NCBI GenBank assembly: GCA_964575135.1 | Contig: CAZNQX010000002.1 | Coordinates: forward strand, 1,091-44,864 | Origin: an uncultured Planctomycetaceae bacterium | GTDB lineage: Bacteria > Planctomycetota > Planctomycetia > Planctomycetales > Planctomycetaceae | Reading direction: 5' to 3' | Length of the DNA: 43,774 bases | Program-made: the position numbers and the translations under genes | The notes under the pieces: generated by a model | Seen by the model: the letters and a program-made list of their open reading frames with translations, nothing else | Told to the model about the DNA's origin: nothing | Databases searched by the model: none | Shown here: piece by piece, positions 7,867 to 43,774 of the stretch | How the letters are laid out: each line of letters begins with the position of its first letter | Numbering within the stretch: the first letter of the stretch is position 1

Positions 7867-10824
7867 TTGCCAAGATCCGTGTCTACCAATTCCCCCCGCT
7901 ACGTTGTCGGCATCGACCTGGGTACGACGAACTCCGCCGTCGCCTTCGCCGACACGGAAGACGATCGCCTGGCCGTTCATATTTTTTCCGTACCGCAGGT
8001 GGTTGCCGCCGGGCAGGTCGAGCGGCGGGAGACGCTGCCGAGCTTTCATTACCAGCCGGCCGCAGGCGAGTTCCCGCCCGAGTCACTGGCGTTGCCATGG
8101 AACAGAAAGGCCGACCACGTCGTCGGTGCATTCGCGCGCGATCAGGGACTGAAGGTTCCCGGCCGGGTGATCATCAGCGCCAAGAGTTGGTTGTGCCATC
8201 CGGGCGTCGATCGGACGGCCGATCTGCTGCCCTGGCACGGAGCCACCGACGTCGATCGGCTCAGCCCGGTTGAGGCGAGTGCCCGGTATCTCGCTCACGT
8301 CCGGTCGGCGTGGAATGCGGCACATCCCGATCATCCGCTCGAACGTCAGGACGTCGTCCTGACGCTGCCGGCATCATTCGACGAGGTCGCCCGCGAACTG
8401 ACGGTGCGGGCGGCACAGAAGGCCGGCCTGCCGCGCGTCGTGTTGATCGAAGAACCGCAGGCGGCGTTCTACGCCTGGATCAACAAGCACCGCGACGACT
8501 GGCAATCGCACGTCGACGCCGGACAGACAATCCTGATCTGCGACATCGGCGGCGGAACGAGCGATTTCACGCTGATTCGTGCCCGCCCGGCAGAAGGCGG
8601 CAGCGTCGCCTTCCATCGCATTGCCGTCGGCGAGCACCTGATCCTCGGCGGCGATAACCTCGATCTCGCGATCGCGAAGCAGCTTGAGGCGAAACTCGCC
8701 GGCAACGACCGGCTCGAACCGCGACTTTGGGAATCGCTGGTCCGACAAAGCCGAGTCGTCAAGGAAACGCTGCTTGCCGAAGACGCCCCCGAGAATCTGA
8801 CGGTGAGTCTCGCCGGCCGCGGCGCGGGACTGATCGGCGGAGCCATGCAGGTCACGGCCGATCGCGAGGCGTTGCGGGGCATGCTTCTTGACGGATTTCT
8901 TCCGAACGTGCCGCTCGATGCAAAGCCTCAAGCGATGCAGTCTGGCTTTCAAGAGTTCGGGCTGCCGTTCGCAGCCGATCCGGCGATCACCCGGCATCTG
9001 GCATGGTTCCTGACGTCGCACTGGGAAATTCTGGCCGATGAAGTGGCAAAAGCGTCGGCGACGCCGTCGTCCGACGGTGCTCCACAACCTGCGTTCGCCG
9101 ACAGCCGCGGTCTGCCGGTCGCAGCATTGAAACCCGATGCCGTCCTGTTCAACGGCGGATTTTTCGTCTCACCCCTGCTGCGAGAACGGCTGCTGTCGGT
9201 GCTGGGCGGATGGTTCGCAGAAGGGGCGGGAGTAGAAGGGGCGGCGAACGGAACACGAGAGACGAGCGGTGGAAACGACTCGTCGCCCATGCTGTACCGC
9301 CCCACGATCCTCGACAACGACGCCCTGTACCTCGCCGTCGCGCGGGGAGCCGCCTACTACGGTCTCGTCCGCCGCGGTCACGGCGTCCGGATCGCCGCCG
9401 GGCTGGCGCGAACGTACTACGTGGGAGTCGAGGTCGAAGGTCTGGTCTCCGATGGCGACACAGAGACTCGACGGCCAGGCGACCCGCCACCCGACACCTC
9501 GTCCCTCGCCGTCTGCCTCGTCCCGGCGGGCACCGAGGCTGGTGAGACCATCGAGTTGGAACAGCCGACGTTTCACCTGCGGGTCGCAGAGCCGGTCGAG
9601 TTGCCGATTTTCACCTCGGCGGTTCGCCTGACCGACAAACCGGGGACCAGGATTCCCGTTGACCGCGAGCAACTCACGGCGCTCCCACCGATCCGGACGG
9701 TGCTCCGAAGCCGCAAGGGCGAAGAAGGTGTCGTCCCGGTGTGCCTGCGGGCGGGCCTGACGGAGATTGGCACGCTCGACCTCAGTTGCCGCGAACTCGA
9801 GGGGAACCGTTCGTGGAAGCTGCAGTTCGACGTCCGAAGTGCGACTCAGACCGACGTGGCGGCTCACGAATCGGCTGCCGAGGCCGAAGGCGTTCTCGAT
9901 GAAGAGGTCTGGGCAGAATGCGAGGCAATCCTTAAGAGCGTCTGGGGGACGGAATCGCAGGCGTCTCCCCGCGACGTGATGAAACGACTGGCCGAAGCGA
10001 TCGGCAGCCCCCGCAACGATTGGCCGACGTCGCTGCTGCGGCGGATGTGGGAATTGCTGCTCGAGCTCGAATCGGGGCGTCGGAAAAGCCCGTCCCACGA
10101 AGCCCGCTGGCTGAATCTCGCCGGCTTTGCACTTCGTCCCGGTTACGGCTACGCCCTCGACGACTGGCGTGTCGGCGAAACGTGGAAAACGCTGCGCAAC
10201 CGTCTCGTGCATCCCAAGCCCGATTGTCTTTCGCAGTGGCGGATCTTCTGGCGGCGGATTGCCGGCGGCCTGGAAGCCGGTCAGCAGCAGACTCTCGCCG
10301 ACCCGGTATTGTCGGAGTTGCGGACCACGAAACCGCAAAGCCGGAGCCAGGGAGCCGGCGTCGAAGAAACATTCCGACTGCTGGCGTCGCTCGAGCGTCT
10401 GAACGTCAGCCGGAAAATCGAAATCGGCCGCATCGCCGCCGCCTGGTTCACCAATGACAAGGCGGCGAGTCTGCATCCGATTGCGGCGTGGAGTCTCGGC
10501 CGGATCGGCGCACGCGTTCCGCTTTACGGACCGCTCAATTCCGTCGTCCCACCGGAAGAAACCCGCCCGTGGCTCGACGCATTGCTGGCCTCCGACCTGC
10601 CCGCGCAGACCCTGGCGTTTCCCATTGCCCAGATGGCCCGCAAGACGGGCGACCGCTTCCGCGACCTGCCGGACGGCGCCCGCGGTCGTGTTGTCGGGTG
10701 GCTGGAACGCCACGAGGCCGCTCTCCATCTCATCCGGCTGGTTCGCGAAGGCGGACAACTCGAAGCCGAGGAACAATCGGCCGCGTTCGGCGAGAGCTTG
10801 CCGAAGGGGCTGCGGTTGCGGTGA
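7867..10824 (+). CDS. Giant Hsp70-family protein: DnaK-type nucleotide-binding domain plus a ~450-aa non-canonical C-terminal region
   Basis: ORF 7867..10824. The track start is TTG, and a GTG at 7879 is equally possible. It contains YVVGIDLGTTNSAVAF, EEPQAAFYAW, LICDIGGGTSDFTLI and NGGFFVSP. The C-terminal ~330 aa is helical (WLNLAGFALRPGYGY...) and does not resemble the canonical DnaK lid. Confidence 0.9.
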   Translation: MPRSVSTNSPRYVVGIDLGTTNSAVAFADTEDDRLAVHIFSVPQVVAAGQVERRETLPSFHYQPAAGEFPPESLALPWNRKADHVVGAFARDQGLKVPGRVIISAKSWLCHPGVDRTADLLPWHGATDVDRLSPVEASARYLAHVRSAWNAAHPDHPLERQDVVLTLPASFDEVARELTVRAAQKAGLPRVVLIEEPQAAFYAWINKHRDDWQSHVDAGQTILICDIGGGTSDFTLIRARPAEGGSVAFHRIAVGEHLILGGDNLDLAIAKQLEAKLAGNDRLEPRLWESLVRQSRVVKETLLAEDAPENLTVSLAGRGAGLIGGAMQVTADREALRGMLLDGFLPNVPLDAKPQAMQSGFQEFGLPFAADPAITRHLAWFLTSHWEILADEVAKASATPSSDGAPQPAFADSRGLPVAALKPDAVLFNGGFFVSPLLRERLLSVLGGWFAEGAGVEGAANGTRETSGGNDSSPMLYRPTILDNDALYLAVARGAAYYGLVRRGHGVRIAAGLARTYYVGVEVEGLVSDGDTETRRPGDPPPDTSSLAVCLVPAGTEAGETIELEQPTFHLRVAEPVELPIFTSAVRLTDKPGTRIPVDREQLTALPPIRTVLRSRKGEEGVVPVCLRAGLTEIGTLDLSCRELEGNRSWKLQFDVRSATQTDVAAHESAAEAEGVLDEEVWAECEAILKSVWGTESQASPRDVMKRLAEAIGSPRNDWPTSLLRRMWELLLELESGRRKSPSHEARWLNLAGFALRPGYGYALDDWRVGETWKTLRNRLVHPKPDCLSQWRIFWRRIAGGLEAGQQQTLADPVLSELRTTKPQSRSQGAGVEETFRLLASLERLNVSRKIEIGRIAAAWFTNDKAASLHPIAAWSLGRIGARVPLYGPLNSVVPPEETRPWLDALLASDLPAQTLAFPIAQMARKTGDRFRDLPDGARGRVVGWLERHEAALHLIRLVREGGQLEAEEQSAAFGESLPKGLRLR

Positions 10825-29971: not shown

Positions 29972-32926
29972 TCAGAACCGCAGTTCGAGCGTGGCGACTT
30001 CGTAGGCGCCCAGATCGACCGAAACGGTCCCGGCTTCGACGAGCAGATCACCGGCAGTCTCGCCGGCGAGCGTCACGAGTCGGGCCGATGTGGGCGATTT
30101 GAAGCAGGCGAGGCGTGCTCGCCTGGCGCGGCCCTCGGTTTCCAGCAGACGAACCTGCAAGCCGCCGGGACCGCCGTCATCAGGCGGCAACGGACGGACG
30201 GAAGTCACCTGCACGTTCCTGGCGTCCACCTGGAAAAACCAGCCTGTTCGCCCGGCAGGCGGTGGCCCGCCCGATGTTTCGACGACGATCGGCGGAACGT
30301 AGGCGTCAAGTGCCGGACGCATCGGATACGGATCGTCGCAGGCGATGACGAAGCGGAACGATCGCGTCGATTCGCCATCGACGATTAACAGGGTATCGAG
30401 CATGCGTTCGCCGGTTCGTCGATGAAACGGAAGTTCGAGTGGCACGATCGTCGTTCGCAGATCCCCCTCGGCGATTTCCAGATAATGCGGCGCATCGAAT
30501 CGGCCGTCGGGTGTCGGCTGCGCCGTTTGTTGAACGCTGCGGGTCAGTACGGCATCCGGGTCGTTCCAGGCGAACCGGCAGGCGTAATAGTTCGTCCACG
30601 GATCCCCCTCGGGCAGGCGCTGCGGATCGAGAACGACGTCCAGTTCGACCACTGGCCGTTCCCGCCAGACGCGAATCGTCTGCCGGAACGTTGCCATGAC
30701 ATCCCCGGAGATCTGATCGATCAGTTCACCGGCCGTGACGGCTTTGGCAAGGGCCGGGCCGTCGCAGGTCAGTTCGACTGACCGGGCACGCATGATTCCG
30801 TAATAGGTGCTTTCAATGTTGCCGTCACCGGATTCGATCTGCCGCTTCCGGGGGAAGCGGTAAGCCAACTGCTGGCTCAGTCGCTTCGGGCTGCGCCCGT
30901 GCCCTTTCAGAAAAGCGATCCCGCCGGTCGTTTCGCTGAGTCGCAGTTCGAAGAACTCGTTACGAAGAGTCAATTCTTCGGCAGTGATCGAACGGTCGCG
31001 TGGTGCGTCCGTGCTGGAATCGCCCGGTAACCACGCAAACCCCGACCCCGGTAATTCGACGACCACGTTGTGCCGCGAGCTGTCGAACTGGATTTGCTTG
31101 ACCGGCCCCTCGAGAACCGGCGGCGAAAATCCTTCGGGGAGTTGGACAACGACCCGACGGGAAAAGGACAAAGGATTGACGATCAGCACCCCCCGGTCGT
31201 GTGGGGAGCCTTGGGCAATCATGGAGGCGAGTGAACCGGCGGCCGCGCTCGTTGCTTCGACCAATTGCCGATCGACCTCCAGGGCCGTTTCCATCTCGGC
31301 ATCGGGTCCGGCCTCTTCGCTGTCATCTTCACGGCGGGCGACCGTGGATGCGTCGTACTCGCTTTGCAGCACGCCCACGATCGACTGCAACCAGTTGACC
31401 GCGTCGAGTTGATGGCGGCGGGTGACGGCGTGACCGAATCGGCCGATCGGATCGGGAAGGCGGCGGGCCACGGCCTGCGTCAGATATGGCGCAAAATAAT
31501 CGGAGGCGCGATGGCGATGCGTCCGCCCCGGTAACTCGCTGTCCTCGAAAAACGTTTCCAGCCCGACGATCCGGCCGAACACCGGCGCATAACGGTGAAT
31601 GCGCCGCAGGTCATCGAGCCACGGCGACGAGACCTCCGGCCACCGGGCAAACATCGCGGCTGCCGTTTGATCCTGCTCCATCGACTCCGCGAGGCGCTGT
31701 GACAGCCGCAGAAAACTGGTGGCACTGTCGGCAGCGAGCGGAATGCGGCTGAAAGCATCGACGCTCACTCCGTCGCAGCCTTCCCAGCGAAAGCGGCTCA
31801 GTTCGTCGTCCGGGTAGTATCCGTCGTCCAGCGCAGCATGAACGGCGTACGGCATCTGTGAGCGTTCGAGCAACTGCGGCAGCAGTGTTGAAAACCCGTA
31901 GCGCCGTCGCGCCCATATCGTCGGTGGGCGACCAAACAATCGCTGGAAGACCGCTCGTCCCCGGTTCAATTCCCACAGGACCGATTCAACGGGAAGCAGC
32001 GATGTCGGCCCTTCACGCATTTCCCCACCGACAAGGCAGAGGTGCTGCTTGTGCCAGTCGGCCGCGAGTCGTTCGACGAGTTCGGGATGTTCGGTGGCGA
32101 TCTGGTCCCAATCGGAGGCCGTGGCCAGCAGGGTCGTTGGTGCGAGCGAAGAGAGTGTTTCCGGGAGCTTGTCTGCCAGTTGCGGCACGACGAGACAGAG
32201 ATCGATCAGATAACTATCAACCGGGAAATAGCGTTCCCGGGCGTCCAGAAGCAGTTCAAAAGCCCGGCTCAGCCGTCGGCGGGCCTGTTCGCAATCGCCC
32301 GCAACCGCCGCCTCGGCGGCTGCGACAACGTCAAGACGCACCGGGCTGCTGTCGAGATTGCTGTAGTAGTGCATCCGCCGGGTCAGCAACTCGAGCTGCA
32401 ACATCGCGGTGCCGAACGCCAGGAAGTCAGCCGCAAGTTCCGCGTCGATCTCCTGACGAGTGCGATCGGCCTGCCGACTGTCTGCGCCGTCGCTGTCCTC
32501 GGCCGGTTCGGCCTTCTGTTCGGTATCCGGCGGGGTAGACGATTCAGCCGTTTCGTTCTGTGCGGTTTCGATCGTTAAAAGCGCTGAGAGAAGTTGCGAG
32601 ACCAGTTCGTCGCGCTCTTCGATGTTTTCAAGGACGACCGCCCCGGAGGCGGTTGCCTCCTCCGACCAGTGGTGCGGCAGCCAGGACGCACAGCAGGCAG
32701 GCACGATGATGATTTTGCCGGTCAGACCGACTGCATCGTCTGTGACGGCGGGAGGTTCGTCGGCCCGCTTCCAGTTCGGCAGTTCACGGGCGGCAGCCAG
32801 CAGAACCGGGTGGTATGCTGCAGAGAAGGCGTTCAGCAGACCTGACGCCTCTGACTCGCCGAGATCGGTCGGGAAATCTTCGAGGCTGTGACAGGGGATG
32901 AGGATCGTGATTTCAGGGCGAATCAT
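29972..32926 (-). CDS. Large GH38 (alpha-mannosidase)-like protein with substituted catalytic motifs
   Basis: ORF 29972..32977. I prefer the ATG at 32926 (MIRPEITILIP). The central block HPELVERL...LVGGEMREGP..LLPVESVLWELNRGRAVFQRLFGRPPTIWARRRYGFSTLLPQLLERSQMPY....FRWEGCDGVSVDAF aligns with the GH38 N-domain consensus as I remember it. The C-terminus is a beta-rich region ending ...VDLGAYEVATLELRF. Confidence 0.75.
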   Translation of the reverse strand: MIRPEITILIPCHSLEDFPTDLGESEASGLLNAFSAAYHPVLLAAARELPNWKRADEPPAVTDDAVGLTGKIIIVPACCASWLPHHWSEEATASGAVVLENIEERDELVSQLLSALLTIETAQNETAESSTPPDTEQKAEPAEDSDGADSRQADRTRQEIDAELAADFLAFGTAMLQLELLTRRMHYYSNLDSSPVRLDVVAAAEAAVAGDCEQARRRLSRAFELLLDARERYFPVDSYLIDLCLVVPQLADKLPETLSSLAPTTLLATASDWDQIATEHPELVERLAADWHKQHLCLVGGEMREGPTSLLPVESVLWELNRGRAVFQRLFGRPPTIWARRRYGFSTLLPQLLERSQMPYAVHAALDDGYYPDDELSRFRWEGCDGVSVDAFSRIPLAADSATSFLRLSQRLAESMEQDQTAAAMFARWPEVSSPWLDDLRRIHRYAPVFGRIVGLETFFEDSELPGRTHRHRASDYFAPYLTQAVARRLPDPIGRFGHAVTRRHQLDAVNWLQSIVGVLQSEYDASTVARREDDSEEAGPDAEMETALEVDRQLVEATSAAAGSLASMIAQGSPHDRGVLIVNPLSFSRRVVVQLPEGFSPPVLEGPVKQIQFDSSRHNVVVELPGSGFAWLPGDSSTDAPRDRSITAEELTLRNEFFELRLSETTGGIAFLKGHGRSPKRLSQQLAYRFPRKRQIESGDGNIESTYYGIMRARSVELTCDGPALAKAVTAGELIDQISGDVMATFRQTIRVWRERPVVELDVVLDPQRLPEGDPWTNYYACRFAWNDPDAVLTRSVQQTAQPTPDGRFDAPHYLEIAEGDLRTTIVPLELPFHRRTGERMLDTLLIVDGESTRSFRFVIACDDPYPMRPALDAYVPPIVVETSGGPPPAGRTGWFFQVDARNVQVTSVRPLPPDDGGPGGLQVRLLETEGRARRARLACFKSPTSARLVTLAGETAGDLLVEAGTVSVDLGAYEVATLELRF

Positions 32927-33100
32927 CGGCCTTTCGCGGAGACGGCGGGACCACGAAACCCGGGGCGGACCTTTCATACCCCGGCGGGCTGCGTCATGAT
33001 ATCGGAGTAGCCGGGAACTTTCCCGCCGGTGGCGTCGTCAAAGGGGTGGCGAACGGGTGACCGTCGCCCGGACCCGAGGCGGTTCGATCCGGTTTTTTGG

Positions 33101-33273: not shown

Positions 33274-33399
33274 ATCGACCGGTCAGAACACGGGCGCCGG
33301 ATTCACCGGCGACCACAGGCATTCACAATTGACTATCGTTAGCAACCGCAGAACCGTTTCGGGCGCCCGCTTGCGGCGCACCGGCCGGGAGTGACGACT

Positions 33400-35946
33400 A
33401 TGCCCGAGGAACGCGGCTACTGGGGAATCGAGATCGGTCAGGCCGGCCTCAAGGCGCTGCGGTTGCAGCCGGTCGAAGGGGCCGGCAAAGCCGTCGCCAC
33501 CAACTTCGATTATGTTCCGCACGCCAAGATCCTCAGCCAGCCGGACGCCGTCCCGGAGGAACTGGTGGCCTCGGCGATCGACACGTTCCTGTCGCGGAAC
33601 GATCTACGGGGCGATTCGATTTCGATCAGCGTGCCGGGACAAAGTGCGCTGGCCCGCTTCATTCAGTTGCCGCCCGTCGAGCAGAGCAAGGTCCACCAGA
33701 TCGTGCTCTACGAGGCCAAGCAACAGATCCCGTTTCCGCTCGAAGACGTGATCTGGGATTACCAGACACTCGGCGGCGGCTCCGAGGAAAGTGGCTATCT
33801 GCTTGAAGCCGAGGTCGGTCTGTTCGCGATGAAACGCGACCTCGTCATGCAGCAGTTGCAGCCCTTCGCCGACCGCAAAGTCGAAGTCGACGTCATTCAG
33901 GTCGCTCCGCTGTGTCTGTTCAACTTCCTGTGCTACGACCGGCTCAAGATCCGGCCCGAGGAACCGTTCACCCCCAATGACGACCATATCGTCATCTGCG
34001 AAATGGGAACGGATAACACGATCCTCGTCGTCACCAACGGCGCGAAGATCTGGATTCGCAACGTGCCGATCGGCGGAAATCATTTCACGCGGGCACTGGT
34101 GAAGGACATGAAATTGACCTTCGCCAAGGCCGAGCACCTCAAGTGCAACGCCACGAAAAGCCCCGATCCCAAGGCGGTCTTCCAGGCGATGCGGCCGGTC
34201 TTCAACGACTACGTCGCCGAGATCCAGCGTTCGGTCGGTTACTTCGCCAGCGTGAATCGCAGTGCGAAAATCACGAAAGTGCTCGGCGTCGGCAACGGCT
34301 TCAAACTCGCCGGGCTTCAGAAATTCCTCCAGCAGAACCTGCAATACCCGGTCGAGCGCGTCGAACGGTTTGAAAGCCTGGTCGGCGAGAAGGTGCTCTC
34401 CGATGCGGTGTTCCACGAGAACATCCTCGGTTTCGTCGTGCCCTACGGCCTGGCGGTGCAGGCGATGGGCCAGACGACGACGAAAACGACGCTCCTGCCG
34501 CCGGAGATCGCAACCGCTCGCAAGATTCGCGGCAAGAAGCCGTGGGCGGTACTCACCGCCGCCGGGCTGCTGGGCATGTTCGCACTGAGCGCTTTCGGCT
34601 ACGGGAACGTCGGGCGGAGCGTCAGCGAAGCCAGGTTCGGCGACGCCGAACAGGCCGTCGAATCCTGGAACGGCACGGCGTCGACCTTCCAGTCGCGCTA
34701 TAGCGGCGTCAAAAGCGAAATTGCCGAGATTCAAAACAGGGCCAACGGCCTGATCGGCGACGTGAGTACGCGGAGCCTCTGGCTCGAATTGATGCGGGCG
34801 GTCAACGAGTGCCTGCCTCGCGACACCGCCGAAACGATCGATGCCGAAGACCCCACCAAGCATCGGCGCATTCGGATCACGTCGCTGACCACCCGGAAAG
34901 TGCCCGATCCCGCGATCTGGTTCAACACGCTTTCGCCAAGCGCGAAGGGCTACCTCGCTCCCTACGACCAGACCGCACCCGCCGCGACCCCCGAGACGGC
35001 CGCGGCCGCTTCCGACGGAGCCGGCACACCCGCCCCGCCGGAATGGTATGTCGTCACACTCGTCGGCAACCACATCCACCACAGCGGCGAGCAGTACACA
35101 CAGCGCGGCATCGGCTTCGTCGCCGATACACTGCTCAGAAACCTCCAGCAGTGGAACGTGCAGCAAGACGGCTCGATCGGCGCGATTCCCGTCGGGAAAA
35201 TGGGGATCAGTCATGCGACGGTGATCCAGAACGACACCGTTCCGGTTCTTGATCCTCGCAACTTCACCGAACTCGACCTGGACGATTCCAATCCGTTCGG
35301 GCAGCGGTTTGGCAGCGGCGGTCGAGGGGGAGCGGGGGCCGGCTACGCTCCTGGCGAAATGATGGAAGATTACGCCCCGCCGGAAATGGCCCCCGGTCCG
35401 GGAGGTGGTCATGGTGGTCCGATGGGCAACGGCGGCTCCTTTGGTGCCCGGAGGCCACAGATCGACCGCCGGACTCTGGAAAACCTGGAAAACCTGACCC
35501 GCCAGAGCCAGGACGGCGAATTGCCGTACCCCGAGATTGAACTCACAACGTTTACGGTCCAGTTCCTCTGGAATCCGATCCGGCCGGAACAACGCACCGA
35601 GACCCGACCGGTTGCCAGTGCCGAGGGCGAGACGCCGGATGACTCGATGACCGCGCCGCAAGACCCCACCGCGGCAGACCCGGCGGCCACGCCGGCACCG
35701 GGAATGCCGGCACCAGGATCACCACCGATGACGAACGATACGCCGGCTCCCGGGGCGCAAATGGCTGAGCCGGCCCCCGGCGCCCCGGCCGAATCGACTC
35801 CCCAGTCGCCGATGCCGACGCCTCCTGAGGGAGGATCTGCAGCACCGGCGGCCCCCGGACAACCACCGTCCGACGCACCAGCACCGAATGCGGCAGCACC
35901 CGGTGCGCCGGATCCGGCGGCGGGCGGACCACCAGCCGCTCCTTGA
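33400..35946 (+). CDS. pilM: PilM-PilN fusion: actin-like PilM ATPase-fold domain, PilN-type linker and TM helix, then a large extracytoplasmic region with Gly- and Pro-rich tracts
   Basis: ORF 33391..35946 (GTG in the track). I prefer the ATG at 33400. The PilM-like part contains YWGIEIGQAGLKAL, VICEMGTDNTILVV, NVPIGGNHFT and GVGNGFKLAGL. It is followed by TLLPPE (34489-34506, compare INLLP of PilN) and the TM helix WAVLTAAGLLGMFALSAFGY. The C-terminal ~130 aa is Pro/Ala-rich. Confidence 0.85.
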   Translation: MPEERGYWGIEIGQAGLKALRLQPVEGAGKAVATNFDYVPHAKILSQPDAVPEELVASAIDTFLSRNDLRGDSISISVPGQSALARFIQLPPVEQSKVHQIVLYEAKQQIPFPLEDVIWDYQTLGGGSEESGYLLEAEVGLFAMKRDLVMQQLQPFADRKVEVDVIQVAPLCLFNFLCYDRLKIRPEEPFTPNDDHIVICEMGTDNTILVVTNGAKIWIRNVPIGGNHFTRALVKDMKLTFAKAEHLKCNATKSPDPKAVFQAMRPVFNDYVAEIQRSVGYFASVNRSAKITKVLGVGNGFKLAGLQKFLQQNLQYPVERVERFESLVGEKVLSDAVFHENILGFVVPYGLAVQAMGQTTTKTTLLPPEIATARKIRGKKPWAVLTAAGLLGMFALSAFGYGNVGRSVSEARFGDAEQAVESWNGTASTFQSRYSGVKSEIAEIQNRANGLIGDVSTRSLWLELMRAVNECLPRDTAETIDAEDPTKHRRIRITSLTTRKVPDPAIWFNTLSPSAKGYLAPYDQTAPAATPETAAAASDGAGTPAPPEWYVVTLVGNHIHHSGEQYTQRGIGFVADTLLRNLQQWNVQQDGSIGAIPVGKMGISHATVIQNDTVPVLDPRNFTELDLDDSNPFGQRFGSGGRGGAGAGYAPGEMMEDYAPPEMAPGPGGGHGGPMGNGGSFGARRPQIDRRTLENLENLTRQSQDGELPYPEIELTTFTVQFLWNPIRPEQRTETRPVASAEGETPDDSMTAPQDPTAADPAATPAPGMPAPGSPPMTNDTPAPGAQMAEPAPGAPAESTPQSPMPTPPEGGSAAPAAPGQPPSDAPAPNAAAPGAPDPAAGGPPAAP

Positions 35947-36021
35947 GACCCTCAGTCGAACGAAATCGCTGCCTGAGACACGCGAAACAACCGACCAATC
36001 CTGCATGCAGGAAGTGCTGCG

Positions 36022-38058
36022 ATGGATAAGCTCAAACCGCTGCTGACCCATAAGTTCTGGATCCTGTCGTTCGTTGCCCTGATCGTGGTGACGGTTGGCT
36101 GGTATCTGGGCACCGGTGCGCAGGCGGCGGCGATTCAGGCCCGCATCGACAAGCTCAACGGCTTGTCACCCACGGCCGGGGGGACGACGCCGAACGACGA
36201 CTGGATCGAGAAGGCCACGGCCGTGAAGGACCAGAACGCGGTCAAGGTTCAGGATGCGGCCGCCTACCTCTGGGAGCACCAGAAGGGCAACATGGTCTGG
36301 CCTCGGCAGATGCGGGAATACGTTCAGGACAAGACGTTCGACTCGGAGCTGGAAAATCAGGCCAAAGAGACCTATCGGCGTCATTTTGCAGCGGAGGTCG
36401 AGCGCCTGGGAGAGGTGGTCGATCCATACGACAGGAACGATCGCAGTATGCGCTGGGAAGGCGCGGTTGTGCTGCAACGGGAAACATTGCCGCTCGTTGA
36501 CCCGTCGATCTGGCAGGGAACGCCGCCGTCGAGCAAAGAGATCTGGTATCTCCAGGAAGACGTCTGGTTGCTGGAAGCCCTGCTGCAATCGGTCCGCGAC
36601 GTCAACGACCGGGCCGGGGCCGACTCGAACATCATCAAGGCGCCGATCAAGCAGATCTCGCTGATCGAACTGCGTGGCGGCGATCGGGCCGCTCTGGCTG
36701 CCGCGGGTGCTGCCGGCGGCATGGCGGCAGGCGGAATGGGCAGTGAAATGGACGCCGAAGGCTACGCCCCGCCCGGCGGTGGTATGTTCAGCGAGATGCA
36801 CGCCGGCGGCGGAGGCGGCTTTGGAATGGGTTCCGGGATGGGCGGCGGAATGGGCGGCGTCGCGGCCGGGACGGATTTCAACATGGACGAAGAGGTCGGA
36901 CCGGCGACGCTTGCGGCTGTCGGTGCAATGGGTTCGATGGAGGGGGAAGCAGCCGACCCGTATGCCGTGCCGGGCGAGGCTGGCGGCGGTGGCTATATCC
37001 CCCCCGCGGACATGGGCGGCGGGATGGGGAGCGCAAACCGGAATCCCCTGCTCGATCAGAAACGCTATGTCGACGACGGCCCGGAACTGCCGTACAAAAC
37101 GCGCGCCTTCAAGCTGTCAGTCGTCATGGACCACCGGCAGATCCCTGAGTTCCTCGTTGAACTCACAAACTCTCCCTTCCCCGTCAATATCGAACGTGCT
37201 CATTGGGCCGAGATGAACCCGGATCCGCGATACGCAGGTCGGGGTCGCGGTTACGGCGGGGGCATGGAGGGGACCGACGGTTACGCGCCTCCCGGTTTTG
37301 GCGGATCGCGCGGGTCGAGGCCTGGTTCCCGCGGCGGCTTTGGCTCACCCATGGGCCTCGGTCACTCTGCGCCGGGACTGAGCAACCCGATGAGCCACGG
37401 TGGTTTCGGCAGCAGCCCGATGGGCAGCGGCCGCCGCAATCCAATGGGCAGCGGGTTCGGCCGCTCGCCGATGGGGGGTGGCATGTTGCCTGGAATGGAC
37501 GGCATGGACGAATACGACGGTATGGGGGGATTTGGCGGCATGGGGAGACAGCGCGGAAACGACCCCTACAGTCAGGCGATGTCCGATCCTTTCCTGGCCG
37601 AGGTCGTCGTCGGCGGCGTCATGACGCTCTACCGATCGCCCCAGGACGTGCAGGCATCGGTGGACGAGGCCGAAGCCGGCACAGGCACCGCGACGGCTCC
37701 CACAGACGCGACGGCTCCCGACGCGGCAGCCTCCGGAATGACGCCGATGAACGGGCCCGGACCAATGGGTACGCCGTCACCGGTGGATCCGGACTCGCCT
37801 CCAGTCACTCCGTCGGCTGCCGAGTCGCTCACTCCTCCGGCAGACGAGACGTTGCCGGAGGATGGCTCCGGACTGCCGGAGGAAGCGGCAGCAGATTCGG
37901 ATGCTTCGGCAACTCCCAATCCGTCGGCACCACCGCCAGCGAACGGCGTTACGGCGCCACCGCCAGCGAACGACGTTACGGCGCCTCCGGCCGAGAGCGG
38001 TGGAGTGGATCCTGAGTCGCCACCGCCTGCGGATGCCGGCAGTGGCCCACCGCTGTAA
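36022..38058 (+). CDS. Hypothetical 678-aa single-pass membrane protein with Gly/Met-rich tracts and a Pro/Ala/Asp-rich tail
   Basis: ORF 36022..38058. It has an N-terminal anchor FWILSFVALIVVTVGWYLGTG preceded by Lys residues. Ordered-looking segments (WYLQEDVWLLEALLQSV, RAFKLSVVMDHRQIPEFLVELTNSPFPVNIE, FLAEVVVGGVMTLY) are separated by long G/M/F/Y low-complexity stretches. Confidence 0.8.
   Translation: MDKLKPLLTHKFWILSFVALIVVTVGWYLGTGAQAAAIQARIDKLNGLSPTAGGTTPNDDWIEKATAVKDQNAVKVQDAAAYLWEHQKGNMVWPRQMREYVQDKTFDSELENQAKETYRRHFAAEVERLGEVVDPYDRNDRSMRWEGAVVLQRETLPLVDPSIWQGTPPSSKEIWYLQEDVWLLEALLQSVRDVNDRAGADSNIIKAPIKQISLIELRGGDRAALAAAGAAGGMAAGGMGSEMDAEGYAPPGGGMFSEMHAGGGGGFGMGSGMGGGMGGVAAGTDFNMDEEVGPATLAAVGAMGSMEGEAADPYAVPGEAGGGGYIPPADMGGGMGSANRNPLLDQKRYVDDGPELPYKTRAFKLSVVMDHRQIPEFLVELTNSPFPVNIERAHWAEMNPDPRYAGRGRGYGGGMEGTDGYAPPGFGGSRGSRPGSRGGFGSPMGLGHSAPGLSNPMSHGGFGSSPMGSGRRNPMGSGFGRSPMGGGMLPGMDGMDEYDGMGGFGGMGRQRGNDPYSQAMSDPFLAEVVVGGVMTLYRSPQDVQASVDEAEAGTGTATAPTDATAPDAAASGMTPMNGPGPMGTPSPVDPDSPPVTPSAAESLTPPADETLPEDGSGLPEEAAADSDASATPNPSAPPPANGVTAPPPANDVTAPPAESGGVDPESPPPADAGSGPPL
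37931..37984. repeat. 27-bp in-frame tandem duplication (1 mismatch) in the tail of the 678-aa protein
   Basis: caccgccagcgaacggcgttacggcgc followed by caccgccagcgaacgacgttacggcgc. This encodes PPPANGVTA / PPPANDVTA. Confidence 0.9.
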
Positions 38059-38180
38059 GCTGAGAAATGGTACGATGAGAACACGACCTTCGAGACGAAA
38101 TTGCTGAACATCGATCGACCCTCGATCACCAATCCACAATCCCAGTCAATTCGGAACCCGTTCCGACCCGGGAGCCGGCC

Positions 38181-40481
38181 ATGAAACTTTCTCCTTCCGG
38201 CATGAAAAACATGAACTGGAAGCAGTTTTTCGTCGATCACGGCGAGAAACTCTTCTTGGGCGTCGTGGCTCTGCTCGGCTTGGTGGCTCTCGGGTTGACC
38301 CGGTGGGCTCCTTATTCCGAGAAGTCGCCATACGAACTGCAGCAGGCGGTGGCGCAGGCTGAAGTCGACCATCAGAACAGCACCTGGCCCGAAGCCGAGC
38401 GCGAGGAGTTGACGTCCAGCGATGATATCTACGCGAAAGCGCAGCAGTTGCTGTCACCGCTGGAAGACTCGCGTTACGTCTTCAGTCGGACGTTGCGGGA
38501 GATCTTCCCCCCGATCGTGCCGCAGAAGCAGCCGCTTGAAGAGCCGCGCTGGTATCCCGTGCAGCGGTTGATCGCCGACGCGAGTACGGTGCTTTACGCA
38601 AAAGCCCCCTCGATGGATGCCCTGCTGGCGGCGGCCGAGGCCGAGGAGGCGGCAGCAGAGGAAGAATCGCAGTCGGGCACCCAGAGCACCGGCCCCGGCC
38701 CGAGAGGGATCGACACCGGGGCGTTCACACCGTCCGCGGCGCGACGTTCTCAGGGATTGCCTGGATTCGGACCGGGGGAAGGAATGGCGGAAGGTTACGT
38801 CCCACCGGGGGGGGGCGAGGAAGCGACCGCCGCCGGGCGCGGAAGAGGCTCGGCTCGCGGTAGCCGCCGGGGGAGTGCACGAGGTGGTTCCGGCGGTCCG
38901 GCTGGTGGCCACGGCGGAGGCGGATCGGGTGCGATGCCGGGGGCAGACTTCTACGGCGGTGAATACGCCGGCGAGTACGGCAGCGGAATGATGGGTGGCT
39001 ACGGGATGGCTGGCCCGATCGAGGCCGAAGCAAAACGGTTTGTCTCGGTCCGCGGCGTCTTCCCGATCAAAGATCAGGAAACGGCTCTCGCGCGGGCGTT
39101 GGGTGCCCAGTCCGCTGCCCAAGTCGTCAATGCGCTGCAGTTCGAGGACTTCGAACTGCAACGTCAGACCGCCGTGCAGGGGAGGAACCCCTGGTCGGGC
39201 CCTTGGGAGGCGGTGGACCATCAGATCGCAATCGACGTGCTCAGCGAACAGGCGAACTTTTCCGCCGACATCGTGGATCAGTCGGTCACCAACGCCGTTT
39301 TCACTATGCCGCTGCCCAACCGGCTCATGGGCGAATGGCAGGAAAGCACCGCCAGCCATCCTGCGCTGACGCAGTTCGAATTGACCGAGGACGCCAGGAA
39401 GCAACAACTCTGGCTCCAGACGAAGATCGCCGAGTATGCCGAGTTGATGAAAGAGCAGGAGGCGGCCCGGCCGCAACCGGGTGGTTTCGCCGCGCTGACC
39501 TACGACACGCGGCAGATTGGCAGCATGATGGCGATGGACTCGGGCTACATGACCGATATGGCCTCTGAGTACTCCGAATACAGCGGGGGGGGAGGATTCG
39601 GTATGTCCCGGCCAACGGCCCGCGGAGCGCGGCGTCAAACCGGCCTCGACAAAATTAAGCCGGAAGACATCAAGAACATGCTCACCGCGAGCGGTACGTA
39701 TTTGCTGTTCCGATATCTCGACTTCGACGTCGAACCGGGGAATGCCTACCGGTATCGAGTCCGCCTGAAAGTTCAGAATCCGAACTTCGGTCGCGATCCG
39801 GGCGAGGCGACCGCTCACAGCGTCGTCGAGGGCGCCAGTCGGATGACTCCCTGGAGTGAACCAACGCCCGTGGCGATCGTTCCGGACGATACCCGGCACT
39901 TCCTGGTCGAGATCGAGCGGCCCGTCTCGAATCAGGCCGATCGGGCCTTGTTCGAGTTGTTCCAGTGGTCTCGCGAATTCGGAACCTACGTTCGTGAATT
40001 TCTCGCGGTCGAGCGGGGGCAGTTTGTGGGAGGAACGACGGAGACCCCGGTGATCGATCCGGCGGGCGGCACCTTCGAGGAACAAAAATTCACGTTCACC
40101 TCGAACGAGGCGCTGGTCGACATCAATCGCAACGGCATGTTCGTCGCGGGACGGACGGAACTGGGGGTCTCCGACCGGAGGTTCCAGATTCCGGCACAAG
40201 TGCTGACCGTCAACGATTGGGGCGGTCTGGAAGTTCAGGATCCGGTCAGTACCCGAGGAAATCGCGTGGCTTGGGAGAACTGGATGGCCGGCGTTGCCAG
40301 CAGCTTCGATTATCTGAAACAACAAACGGTCGCGACCGGTGAAGCTGGCATGGAATACATGGAAGAGGGAATGTACGACGCTGAGATGACCCGCGGCTCC
40401 CGCGGCTCGGGACCGGCCAGCCCGCTTCGCCGGGGCCGTGGACGCGGCGCCGCTGGATCGTTTTCCGGCAGTATGCCCTGA
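38181..40481 (+). CDS. Hypothetical 766-aa single-pass membrane protein with RG/GY/GM-rich tracts and a beta-rich C-terminal domain
   Basis: ORF 38181..40481; alternative ATGs at 38202 and 38211. It has the anchor LFLGVVALLGLVALGL and low-complexity tracts (RGRGSARGSRRGSARGG, YGGEYAGEYGSGMMGGYGMAG). Ordered-looking parts include FVSVRGVFPIKDQE and TYLLFRYLDFDVEPGNAYRYRVRLKVQNPNF. Confidence 0.8.
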   Translation: MKLSPSGMKNMNWKQFFVDHGEKLFLGVVALLGLVALGLTRWAPYSEKSPYELQQAVAQAEVDHQNSTWPEAEREELTSSDDIYAKAQQLLSPLEDSRYVFSRTLREIFPPIVPQKQPLEEPRWYPVQRLIADASTVLYAKAPSMDALLAAAEAEEAAAEEESQSGTQSTGPGPRGIDTGAFTPSAARRSQGLPGFGPGEGMAEGYVPPGGGEEATAAGRGRGSARGSRRGSARGGSGGPAGGHGGGGSGAMPGADFYGGEYAGEYGSGMMGGYGMAGPIEAEAKRFVSVRGVFPIKDQETALARALGAQSAAQVVNALQFEDFELQRQTAVQGRNPWSGPWEAVDHQIAIDVLSEQANFSADIVDQSVTNAVFTMPLPNRLMGEWQESTASHPALTQFELTEDARKQQLWLQTKIAEYAELMKEQEAARPQPGGFAALTYDTRQIGSMMAMDSGYMTDMASEYSEYSGGGGFGMSRPTARGARRQTGLDKIKPEDIKNMLTASGTYLLFRYLDFDVEPGNAYRYRVRLKVQNPNFGRDPGEATAHSVVEGASRMTPWSEPTPVAIVPDDTRHFLVEIERPVSNQADRALFELFQWSREFGTYVREFLAVERGQFVGGTTETPVIDPAGGTFEEQKFTFTSNEALVDINRNGMFVAGRTELGVSDRRFQIPAQVLTVNDWGGLEVQDPVSTRGNRVAWENWMAGVASSFDYLKQQTVATGEAGMEYMEEGMYDAEMTRGSRGSGPASPLRRGRGRGAAGSFSGSMP

Positions 40482-42633: not shown

Positions 42634-43774
42634 TCAACGCTGACCGGCGGCCAGATACCGGGCCAGACCTTTACTGCGGTTGCGCGACGGCACGGTGTCG
42701 GATGCGACATCGGCTCCGACGGCTGCAACCGCCGGATCAACCGGCTCGTCGATTTTCCGCGCCAGTCCTTCGATGGCCGTTGTAAGTCGTGACTTCGACG
42801 ACTGAGTCACGAGCGGCACGCCCTGATTGCGGCTTTCGACCATCGCGGCAAACTCATCGGGCAACTCCCAGAAGATCTCCTGGCCAATCGACTCTCGGGC
42901 CGCATCAAGCGTCATCCCGGTGCCTGGAAGGCCGACGCGGTTGGCAACGACCCTGACCTTCTCCCGGAGACCGTCGTGGCGATCGAGCAGTTCCAGCAAT
43001 CGGACGACGTTCCGCAGGCAGGGCCGATCGAGCTGCGTCACCATCAGAATCGTGTCGGAGGTTTTCAGGATCGCGAGATCGAGTGGGCCGAAGTTCCTGC
43101 CGACGTCGATCACTTGGTGGGTGAAGGTCGTTTTGAGCAGGACAACGACACGTGCGATCTGGTCGGGCGTCAACGCTGCGTCCGGTCCGATTTGTCCCGT
43201 CCCGGGGAGCAGGAAGACACCGCAGGCATGACGGGTCAGGCTCCGTTTCAGAAAGGTGGAATCGAAGCGTCCGACCTTCCCGGCAATGTCCCGGATCGTG
43301 GTGTCGGGCACCAGATCGAGCCAGATGTCGGCATCGCCGAGCGTCAGATCCAGATCGAGGACCGCGACGCTGCTGCGATCCGCCCGTGCCAGAACGCAAC
43401 CTAGATTGGTCGCCAGACTCGTGCAGCCAACGCCCCCGCCTGCCCCACAAACCGTGATGACGCGGCTCGACCTGAGTCTGCCGGCCGCATCTTTTCCGGC
43501 AGTCCGGGCCTGGATTCGATCGAGAGTGGCCAGAACGTTTTCGAGAGTCGGCGCATCGGCCAGAAACTCCCGGGCGCCGTTCCGCATCGCCTGCAAAATC
43601 AGACTGCCGTCCTGGCGACTGCTGATGCAGAGAATCGCGCAGGTCGGTGCGTCCCGGCTGATTTGGGACACCAGCTTCAGTGCCTTCGCCGGCTCGGCGT
43701 CGAGTGCGACAACCGCGACGTCGGGACACGTTTGGCTAATAATGTCGCCGAAGAATTCGTAACGGCTGCAATCC
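42634..43774 (-). CDS. TadZ/CpaE-like pilus-assembly protein (receiver-like domain plus MinD/ParA-fold domain), 5' end outside the window
   Basis: ORF 42634..43671 in the track (GTG). The frame stays open to the window edge, reading DCSRYEFFGDIISQTCPDVAVVALDAEPAKALKLVSQISRD. The ParA-fold part contains VITVCGAGGGVGCTSLATNLG, LDLDL and VVANRV. Confidence 0.8.
   Translation of the reverse strand, partial: DCSRYEFFGDIISQTCPDVAVVALDAEPAKALKLVSQISRDAPTCAILCISSRQDGSLILQAMRNGAREFLADAPTLENVLATLDRIQARTAGKDAAGRLRSSRVITVCGAGGGVGCTSLATNLGCVLARADRSSVAVLDLDLTLGDADIWLDLVPDTTIRDIAGKVGRFDSTFLKRSLTRHACGVFLLPGTGQIGPDAALTPDQIARVVVLLKTTFTHQVIDVGRNFGPLDLAILKTSDTILMVTQLDRPCLRNVVRLLELLDRHDGLREKVRVVANRVGLPGTGMTLDAARESIGQEIFWELPDEFAAMVESRNQGVPLVTQSSKSRLTTAIEGLARKIDEPVDPAVAAVGADVASDTVPSRNRSKGLARYLAAGQR

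Follow-up and report, generated by a model that had tools for sequence, protein, structure and literature searches.

A short motif of an acidic residue, Gly, Tyr and two Pro residues recurs in all three proteins of an operon, g1-g2-g3, from an uncultured Planctomycetaceae bacterium (GenBank assembly GCA_964575135.1, contig CAZNQX010000002.1, positions 1,091 to 44,864; 43,774 nucleotides, referred to as the window herein). The motif copies lie within Gly/Met-rich tracts, and on sequence evidence purifying selection appears to preserve the motif, as protein sequence, in one clade and not family-wide. We favor, with a probability of about 0.4, a reading in which the operon encodes a platform module carrying periplasmic loops and in which the clade-selected motif would act as a cohesive sticker in an elastomer-like periplasmic layer.

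The motif recurs more often than tract composition predicts

To delimit the tracts, we took 20-residue windows with at least 25% Gly, which gave 588 residues and 21 Tyr over the three proteins (Table 1). Five strict copies of the motif were found, namely DYAPP at residues 660-664 of g1, GYAPP at 247-251, GYIPP at 324-328 and GYAPP at 420-424 of g2, and GYVPP at 205-209 of g3, along with two degenerate copies, GYAPG in g1 and the looser variant YAVPG in g2. The Tyr is usually preceded by acidic residues, often with Met, as seen in EMMEDYAPPE, MDAEGYAPPG, EGTDGYAPPG, and GMAEGYVPPG. A preliminary description of this DNA had listed these seven sites, and all of them translate as listed with coordinates that agree to within one codon; some of its labels include a flanking residue outside the coordinates given for the site. 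The low-complexity strings and the Arg-Gly (RG) runs of g3 that it reported were also found in the translations. The first g2 tract additionally holds an abductin-like string, GGGGGFGMGSGMGGGMGG, and the main g3 tract holds an RG run, GRGRGSARGSRRGSARGG, at 38835-38888.

Searching the tracts with the patterns Y[AVI]P[PG] and GY[AVI]PP yielded six and four matches, respectively. When we shuffled the residues within each tract 20,000 times while preserving composition, the mean count was 0.06, the maximum was two for the loose and one for the strict pattern, and none of the shuffles reached three. Translated in all six frames (87,544 residues), the window has eight Y[AVI]P[PG] sites, of which six are the operon tract sites and the remaining two lie in unrelated genes, in folded contexts.

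At the DNA level, resemblance between copies is confined to the ~17 nt of motif codons (family D3); over 27 nt of flanking sequence, identity is no higher than background, at 4 to 14 of 27 positions. Given these unrelated flanks, we reject a recent duplication or conversion of DNA as the origin of the copies, in agreement with the preliminary description, which had argued against a recent duplication. A tandem-repeat origin was ruled out as well, since Tandem Repeats Finder reported only 2-3 copies of 8-27-nt units. Lastly, hhalign comparison of g2, g3, and the periplasmic part of g1, as profiles with the loops masked, gave probabilities of 1% or less. Detectable paralogy of the three periplasmic parts is thereby eliminated as an explanation of the shared motif.

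Motif sites are conserved in one clade while the tracts are family-wide

Gene order was compared in 80 loci from GTDB genomes. The order g1-g2-g3 is strict wherever the contig allows (~70 of the 80 loci, Planctomycetaceae), and a g3 orthologue lies directly 3' of g2 in 69 loci. All g2 homologues are from Planctomycetaceae, with Gimesia, Calycomorphotria, Thalassoroseus, Schlesneria, Planctomicrobium, and Fuerstiella among them, and those retrieved from databases are all annotated as 'hypothetical'. The g1 orthologues were taken from the loci; a homologue search with the g1 periplasmic part returned only two distant matches. In three loci (L014, L018, and L032) the called g3 open reading frame (ORF) has its start upstream and shares 230-284 nt with the end of g2; the overlap is probably not real but due to the choice of start codon in ORF calling.

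Essentially all orthologues contain Gly/Met-rich tracts at the same insertion points, the g1 tract being variable and of low complexity in every one. Family-wide, the tracts consist of about 30% Gly, 4-8% Met, 7-13% Pro, 4-5% Tyr plus Phe, and 3-5% Arg, with Asp and Glu together making up ~7-9%.

The motif itself occupies equivalent positions in g1, g2, and g3 of close relatives, to a limit of roughly 45-55% identity. For g2, P0002-P0004 retain the three sites and P0005 retains part of them (44-62% identity), and from P0006 onward they are absent. For g3, GY[VAT]PPG is kept in P0121, P0122, P0123, L002, and L082 and becomes degenerate or absent beyond about 50% identity. The g1 equivalents read EEYAPPGEE in L001, EGYTPPE in L002, and EGYAPE in L005, and g1 has sporadic GYMPPGE in L058 and L072 and a looser GYMPGGE in L061. 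When we compared four g2 sequences column by column, 8 of the 12 motif columns were invariant, as against 38 of the 194 other tract columns. Moreover, the motif codons differ synonymously between the window and L001. Two propositions of the preliminary description are thereby borne out: that the similarity is kept at the protein level and, in close relatives, that the motif is conserved while its flanks drift. The interpretation given there is supported in part. Every motif occurrence in a Gly-rich context, in the window and in the relatives' loci, falls in an operon protein. The motif is not general among the orthologues, however, most of which do not have it.

In AlphaFold2 (AF2) models, the predicted local distance difference test (pLDDT) score is <50 around every g2 and g3 motif copy. 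Within the clade, the motif thus has the properties of a short linear motif: it sits in a disordered setting, is conserved beyond its flanks, and has copies in non-homologous sequence.

These data can be set against a neutral origin, in which loops rich in Gly, Pro, Ala, and Tyr evolve fast by slippage and occasional ectopic conversion, and YxPP would have arisen in one lineage, spread between tracts, and persisted by ancestry and weak constraint on composition. Such a by-product would fit the absence of the motif from 65-76 of the roughly 70-80 orthologues per protein, which retain their tracts, as well as the variation of tract words by lineage, the sporadic GYxPG-like words in distant loci (L006, L007, L058, L061, and L072), and the small slippage-type tandem repeats within tracts. 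We consider it unlikely given the unrelated DNA flanks of the copies, the retention of homologous sites at 45-62% protein identity with synonymous turnover, the excess of invariant motif columns, and a count that composition shuffles never reached.

The same conservation could reflect a docking or modification site for one external factor that marks all three subunits alike. This factor would be either a folded partner in the periplasm that binds polyproline II (PPII) peptides or an enzyme, for instance one that hydroxylates X-Pro-Gly, sulfates or phosphorylates acid-flanked Tyr, or glycosylates nearby Ser/Thr. The motif may resemble known enzyme recognition patterns. Its form is regular and extended, with acidic residues at -1 to -3, Tyr, Pro-Pro, and often Gly; g1, g2, and g3 of the clade all retain it; and a GH38-like gene lies divergently upstream of g1 in 48 of the 80 loci. 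Nothing, however, ties this gene specifically to the motif clade, and neither the operon nor its neighbors encode a candidate enzyme or a PPII-binding domain. The absence of the motif from most orthologues also speaks against a modification that is essential to the machine, and we regard an external factor of this kind as doubtful.

Lineage-specific words are shared between the three proteins

We then asked how far tract words are shared between the proteins of one genome, using the 48 genomes with tracts in all three proteins. The cross-protein k=4 cosine was 0.07-0.10 within a genome versus 0.03-0.05 between genomes (permutation p<=2e-4), and composition-only shuffles gave 0.036-0.061. The sharing of 3- and 4-mers within a genome thus exceeds what composition provides, and the effect persisted with seven representatives of <70% PilM identity. 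Example words include PGGLSGPGG in L056 and L066 and GMGM or GMPPGM in L067. Identical cross-protein peptides reach 8-14 residues, and the encoding DNA shares much shorter runs: 15 nt for GLSGPPSGGGIG in L066, 12 nt for SPGGLSGPGG in L056, and 12 nt for GGGGFGM, which occurs in both g2 and g3 of the window. Seen alongside these words, the motif looks like this clade's version of vocabulary that the loops of the three proteins have in common, as judged from their sequences.

Aromatic residues tend to be spaced more evenly than random. This was clearest for g2 (mean z -0.68, 85% of tracts below 0, p about 1e-12 with no correction for phylogeny), with z -0.34 (p=0.09) for g3 and z -0.29 (p=0.3) for g1. 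Met, acidic residues, and, in g3, Arg are blocky in the tracts. Since word sharing within genomes is family-wide, it indirectly favors cohesion between the tracts of the three proteins.

The operon encodes a PilM-domain protein and two bitopic proteins

Residues 12-357 of g1 form an actin-like PilM domain. PF11104 (PilM_2) matched with 97.5 bits against a cut-off of 27, TIGR01175 (pilM) with 147.5 bits against a cut-off of 133, and Myxococcus xanthus PilM (3jc8_Ma) at E=2.3e-27, PDB PilM chains in general ranging from E=2e-27 to 5e-10. The best NCBIfam match was Amuc_1101_fam (NF045709; E=5e-58, residues 57-479), with 197.3 bits against a family cut-off of 650. g1 is thus a PilM-domain protein and is neither a canonical soluble PilM nor an Amuc_1101 equivalog. 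We set aside an FtsA-like role in cell division for g1 since the FtsA matches were below cut-off and the PilM cut-off was passed.

One hydrophobic helix per protein is predicted to span the membrane, at residues 385-403 of g1, followed by ~450 predicted periplasmic residues, at 12-30 of g2, and at 24-42 of g3. Lys and Arg are richer on the N-terminal side of each helix. This bias, together with the cytoplasmic PilM domain of g1, predicts that the tracts of all three proteins are periplasmic, and the predicted topology agrees with the earlier claim that they lie outside the cytoplasm.

Neither g2 nor g3 has a Pfam or NCBIfam match. With the tracts deleted, g2, g3, and the g1 periplasmic part gave no Pfam match at E<=10, including to the PilN and PilO families (PF05137 and PF04350), and sequence-profile searches of the PDB with the g2 and g3 alignments returned nothing relevant. 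An AF2 model of g2 built from 65 homologues has pLDDT >90 in three folded blocks and <50 for residues 238-281, 300-336, and 409-508. Its elements run from the transmembrane (TM) helix through long helices to beta-alpha, beta-alpha-beta, and beta-alpha units, and from this order we infer that the g2 tracts are disordered loops within one alpha/beta domain. A Foldseek search of the PDB with the model gave 11 matches, all weak (E 0.6 to 9.6) and all PilO or Amuc_1100; the PilO entries 3jc8_Oa, 2rjz, and 5uvr and the Amuc_1100 entries 6lad, 6kny, and 6laf are among these non-significant matches. The model is suggestive of a PilO/Amuc_1100-like bitopic protein, and on present evidence g2 cannot be filed as PilO. 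The g3 model, from 11 sequences, was poor (mean pLDDT 50, with <50 for residues 162-282), and its Foldseek matches were weak FN3-like beta-sandwiches only, on which we do not rely.

The loop placement in g2 bears on a purely mechanical function, in which the tracts would be abductin/resilin-like entropic springs that fit the platform to the variable, enlarged planctomycete periplasm and YxPPG would be a mere turn or PPII unit with no binding role. The tracts are predicted to be disordered, and in words and composition they are similar to abductin (consensus GGFGGMGGGX) and resilin (repeat GGRPSDSYGAPGGGN; PMC13052691), as GGGGGFGMGSGMGGGMGG and GYAPPGGG of g2 illustrate. We find springs very improbable, however. 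The g2 tracts appear to be loops within a domain and not linkers between domains, and a loop sets no end-to-end distance; the copies are few and non-tandem; and a spring needs no words common to several proteins.

Several segments outside the motif are also conserved. Within the disordered first tract of g2 lies an island, DFNMDEEVGPA (36874-36906, residues 285-295), that is conserved family-wide with a consensus of approximately F-x-L-x-E-E-F-G. Its Gly293 does not vary among 18 sequences and reaches at least 90% conservation among 65, and AF2 predicts a short helix with pLDDT around 80. The island is conserved far more widely than GYxPP and would be a better candidate for a family-wide docking motif. 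At the cytoplasmic N-terminus, g2 has a conserved peptide MDKLKPxL (residues 1-8, 36022-36045; Lys3, Leu4, and Pro6 at 90% or more). It is reminiscent of the N-terminal peptide by which PilN binds PilM, and the PilM domain of g1 may be its docking site. A conserved cytoplasmic N-peptide is also found in g3 (residues 9-24, 38205-38252), with Lys9, Lys14, His20, Glu22, and Lys23 invariant.

Following their periplasmic parts, g1 (35593-35943) and g2 (37699-38055) end in Pro/Ala/Thr-rich tails of ~115-120 residues with no folded domain after them, and in the g2 tail APPPAN[GD]VT is encoded by a 27-nt unit repeated in tandem (2.4 copies, 37925-37989). The C-terminus of g3 (residues 735-766, 40383-40478) carries a conserved RG motif, PLRRGRGRG, in which Arg741 is at least 90% conserved. 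The internal RG run of g3 is enlarged to about a dozen GRGGAAG repeats in relatives such as L005 (9224-11611) and P0125. Runs of the RGG type are unusual for a predicted periplasmic protein.

A cohesive periplasmic layer around a platform is the preferred explanation

Taken together, we propose that g1-g2-g3 would form a Planctomycetaceae-wide module akin to the platform that type IV filament machines have in the inner membrane. In it, g1 joins PilM to a membrane helix and a periplasmic domain, g2 is a putative PilO/Amuc_1100-like protein, and g3 is a third bitopic protein. Each periplasmic part would bear long intrinsically disordered loops, and acidic-G-Y-[AVIT]-P-P-[GE] would be a short linear motif kept by purifying selection in a single clade. 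The acidic-flanked Tyr/Pro-Pro stickers, set in Gly/Met spacers, could make weak multivalent contacts with each other and possibly also with the RG runs of g2 and g3. In this way the loops of the three subunits may cohere into a compliant, elastomer-like layer of the periplasm around the platform. Cohesion, elasticity, and the machine served by the platform are points that we only infer.

Several observations weigh against this proposal. There are just 1-4 motif copies per protein and no tandem array, and the motif is dispensable for core function, as most orthologues keep their tracts without it. The within-genome sharing of words could arise from a genome-wide low-complexity bias, and phylogenetic relatedness is only in part accounted for in the spacing and word-sharing statistics. 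For g2, a PilO identity depends on Foldseek matches that are non-significant (E>=0.6), with no PilN or PilO Pfam match even when the loops are deleted. Finally, no secretin, pilin, or ATPase gene was found near the operon in the 80 loci.

A bolder form of the cohesive layer, which we hold to be improbable, is a periplasmic gel or condensate around the type IV filament-like platform, in which lineage-specific sticker words (acidic-GYxPPG plus RG runs) would co-evolve as an assembly 'dialect'. If true, FG-nucleoporin or abductin-like phases would have an equivalent in bacteria, outside the cytoplasm. Should the loops of the three subunits cohere through co-evolving words, they would represent a rare sticker-and-spacer organization of a bacterial envelope machine outside the cytoplasm. 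Should the motif be neutral instead, it would document the speed and concertedness with which low-complexity loops drift within one complex. The trio is conserved across Planctomycetaceae, organisms in which the periplasm is enlarged and variable and, like the surface structures, still little understood. Our searches of the literature on planctomycete PilM, PilN, and PilO found no account of these proteins or of the motif.

Neighborhood of the operon and other features of the window

The operon is surrounded by housekeeping genes, with folC convergent downstream in 21 loci. The GH38-like ORF is divergent from g1, and a MinD/ParA-type gene lies two genes downstream of the operon, after a convergent folC-like gene. 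Searching the window against Rfam gave no match.

Table 1. Positions in the window of the operon genes, their Gly-rich tracts, and other ORFs with domain matches
Feature	Coordinates	Strand	Description
g1	33391-35946	+	851 aa; PilM domain, TM helix, periplasmic part with Gly-rich tract, Pro/Ala-rich tail
g1 tract	35269-35475	+	aa 627-695; GYAPG 35341-35355, DYAPP 35368-35382
g2	36022-38058	+	678 aa; N-peptide, TM helix, helices, alpha/beta domain with two disordered tracts (predicted), Pro-rich tail
g2 tract 1	36727-37032	+	aa 236-337; GYAPPG 36760-36777, YAVPG 36961-36975, GYIPP 36991-37005
g2 tract 2	37234-37557	+	aa 405-512; GYAPPG 37279-37296; RG, GFG, and PMG words
g3	38181-40481	+	766 aa; N-peptide, TM helix, periplasmic alpha/beta and beta-rich parts (predicted), RG-rich C-terminus
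g3 main tract	38661-39044	+	aa 161-288; GYVPPG 38793-38810, GMMGGYGMAG
g3 second short tract	39537-39650	+	aa 453-490; GGGGFGM, a 7-mer also in g2
GH38-like ORF	29972-32977	-	1001 aa; weak match to GH38 N-terminal domain (E=6e-6), no NCBIfam name
MinD/ParA-type P-loop ATPase	42634-43671	-	345 aa; MinD model E=1e-14, below cut-off
ORF with Hsp70/HscA and actin-like ATPase match	7867-10824	+	985 aa; match in N-terminal third, E about 1e-23, far below family cut-offs

Comparison with known systems

The PilM-PilN-PilO(-PilP) assemblies of Pseudomonas aeruginosa, M. xanthus, and Thermus thermophilus share with the operon a PilM domain, in g1, followed by bitopic proteins, which for g2 are predicted to have an N-in helix, a helical stalk, and an alpha/beta core; in PilN and PilO this core is ferredoxin-like. 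Unlike canonical PilM, which is soluble and anchored via a separate PilN N-peptide, g1 has its own TM helix and periplasmic domain. None of the operon proteins matches a PilN, PilO, or PilP model, and no PilQ, PilB, PilC, or pilin gene adjoins the operon. The planctomycete proteins also differ in the disordered Gly/Met-rich loops of 70-130 residues within their periplasmic parts and in the long Pro-rich tails of g1 and g2.

In type II secretion, GspL joins an actin-like cytoplasmic domain via one TM helix to a periplasmic domain and is accompanied by two bitopic partners. The GspL-GspM-GspC trio would be analogous in architecture; searches with g1, g2, and g3 gave no sequence or profile match to it.

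The pili-like cluster Amuc_1098-Amuc_1102 of Akkermansia muciniphila includes the secretin Amuc_1098, the PilM-like Amuc_1101, and Amuc_1100 (PMC5332112). It is the closest described relative in the Planctomycetes-Verrucomicrobia-Chlamydiae (PVC) group, to which both organisms belong. Amuc_1101_fam is the best NCBIfam match of g1, and Amuc_1100 is among the weak fold matches of g2. However, the g1 score of 197 compares with a cut-off of 650, the Foldseek matches are non-significant, and the planctomycete operon stands alone with no secretin.

Outside bacteria, abductin and resilin are likewise Gly/Met/Phe-rich, contain Tyr-x-x-Pro-Gly-Gly words, and are predicted to be random coil. They belong to animal extracellular matrix and form long tandem arrays with cross-links, whereas the planctomycete tracts are short, non-tandem, and placed inside bacterial periplasmic domains. 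This resemblance is only compositional convergence and not homology. FG-nucleoporins and prion-like domains, in turn, are eukaryotic and cytoplasmic or nuclear, while the planctomycete tracts are shorter and more acidic. They are alike in having GFG/GMG/GYG words in Gly-rich spacers and RG runs beside Tyr, and in carrying related words in different proteins of one assembly; the even spacing of aromatics in those domains has a possible parallel in the tendency seen in the tracts, above all in g2. The best-supported reading of the trio is a PilM/PilN/PilO-like platform module or, in architecture, a GspL/GspM/GspC-like one.

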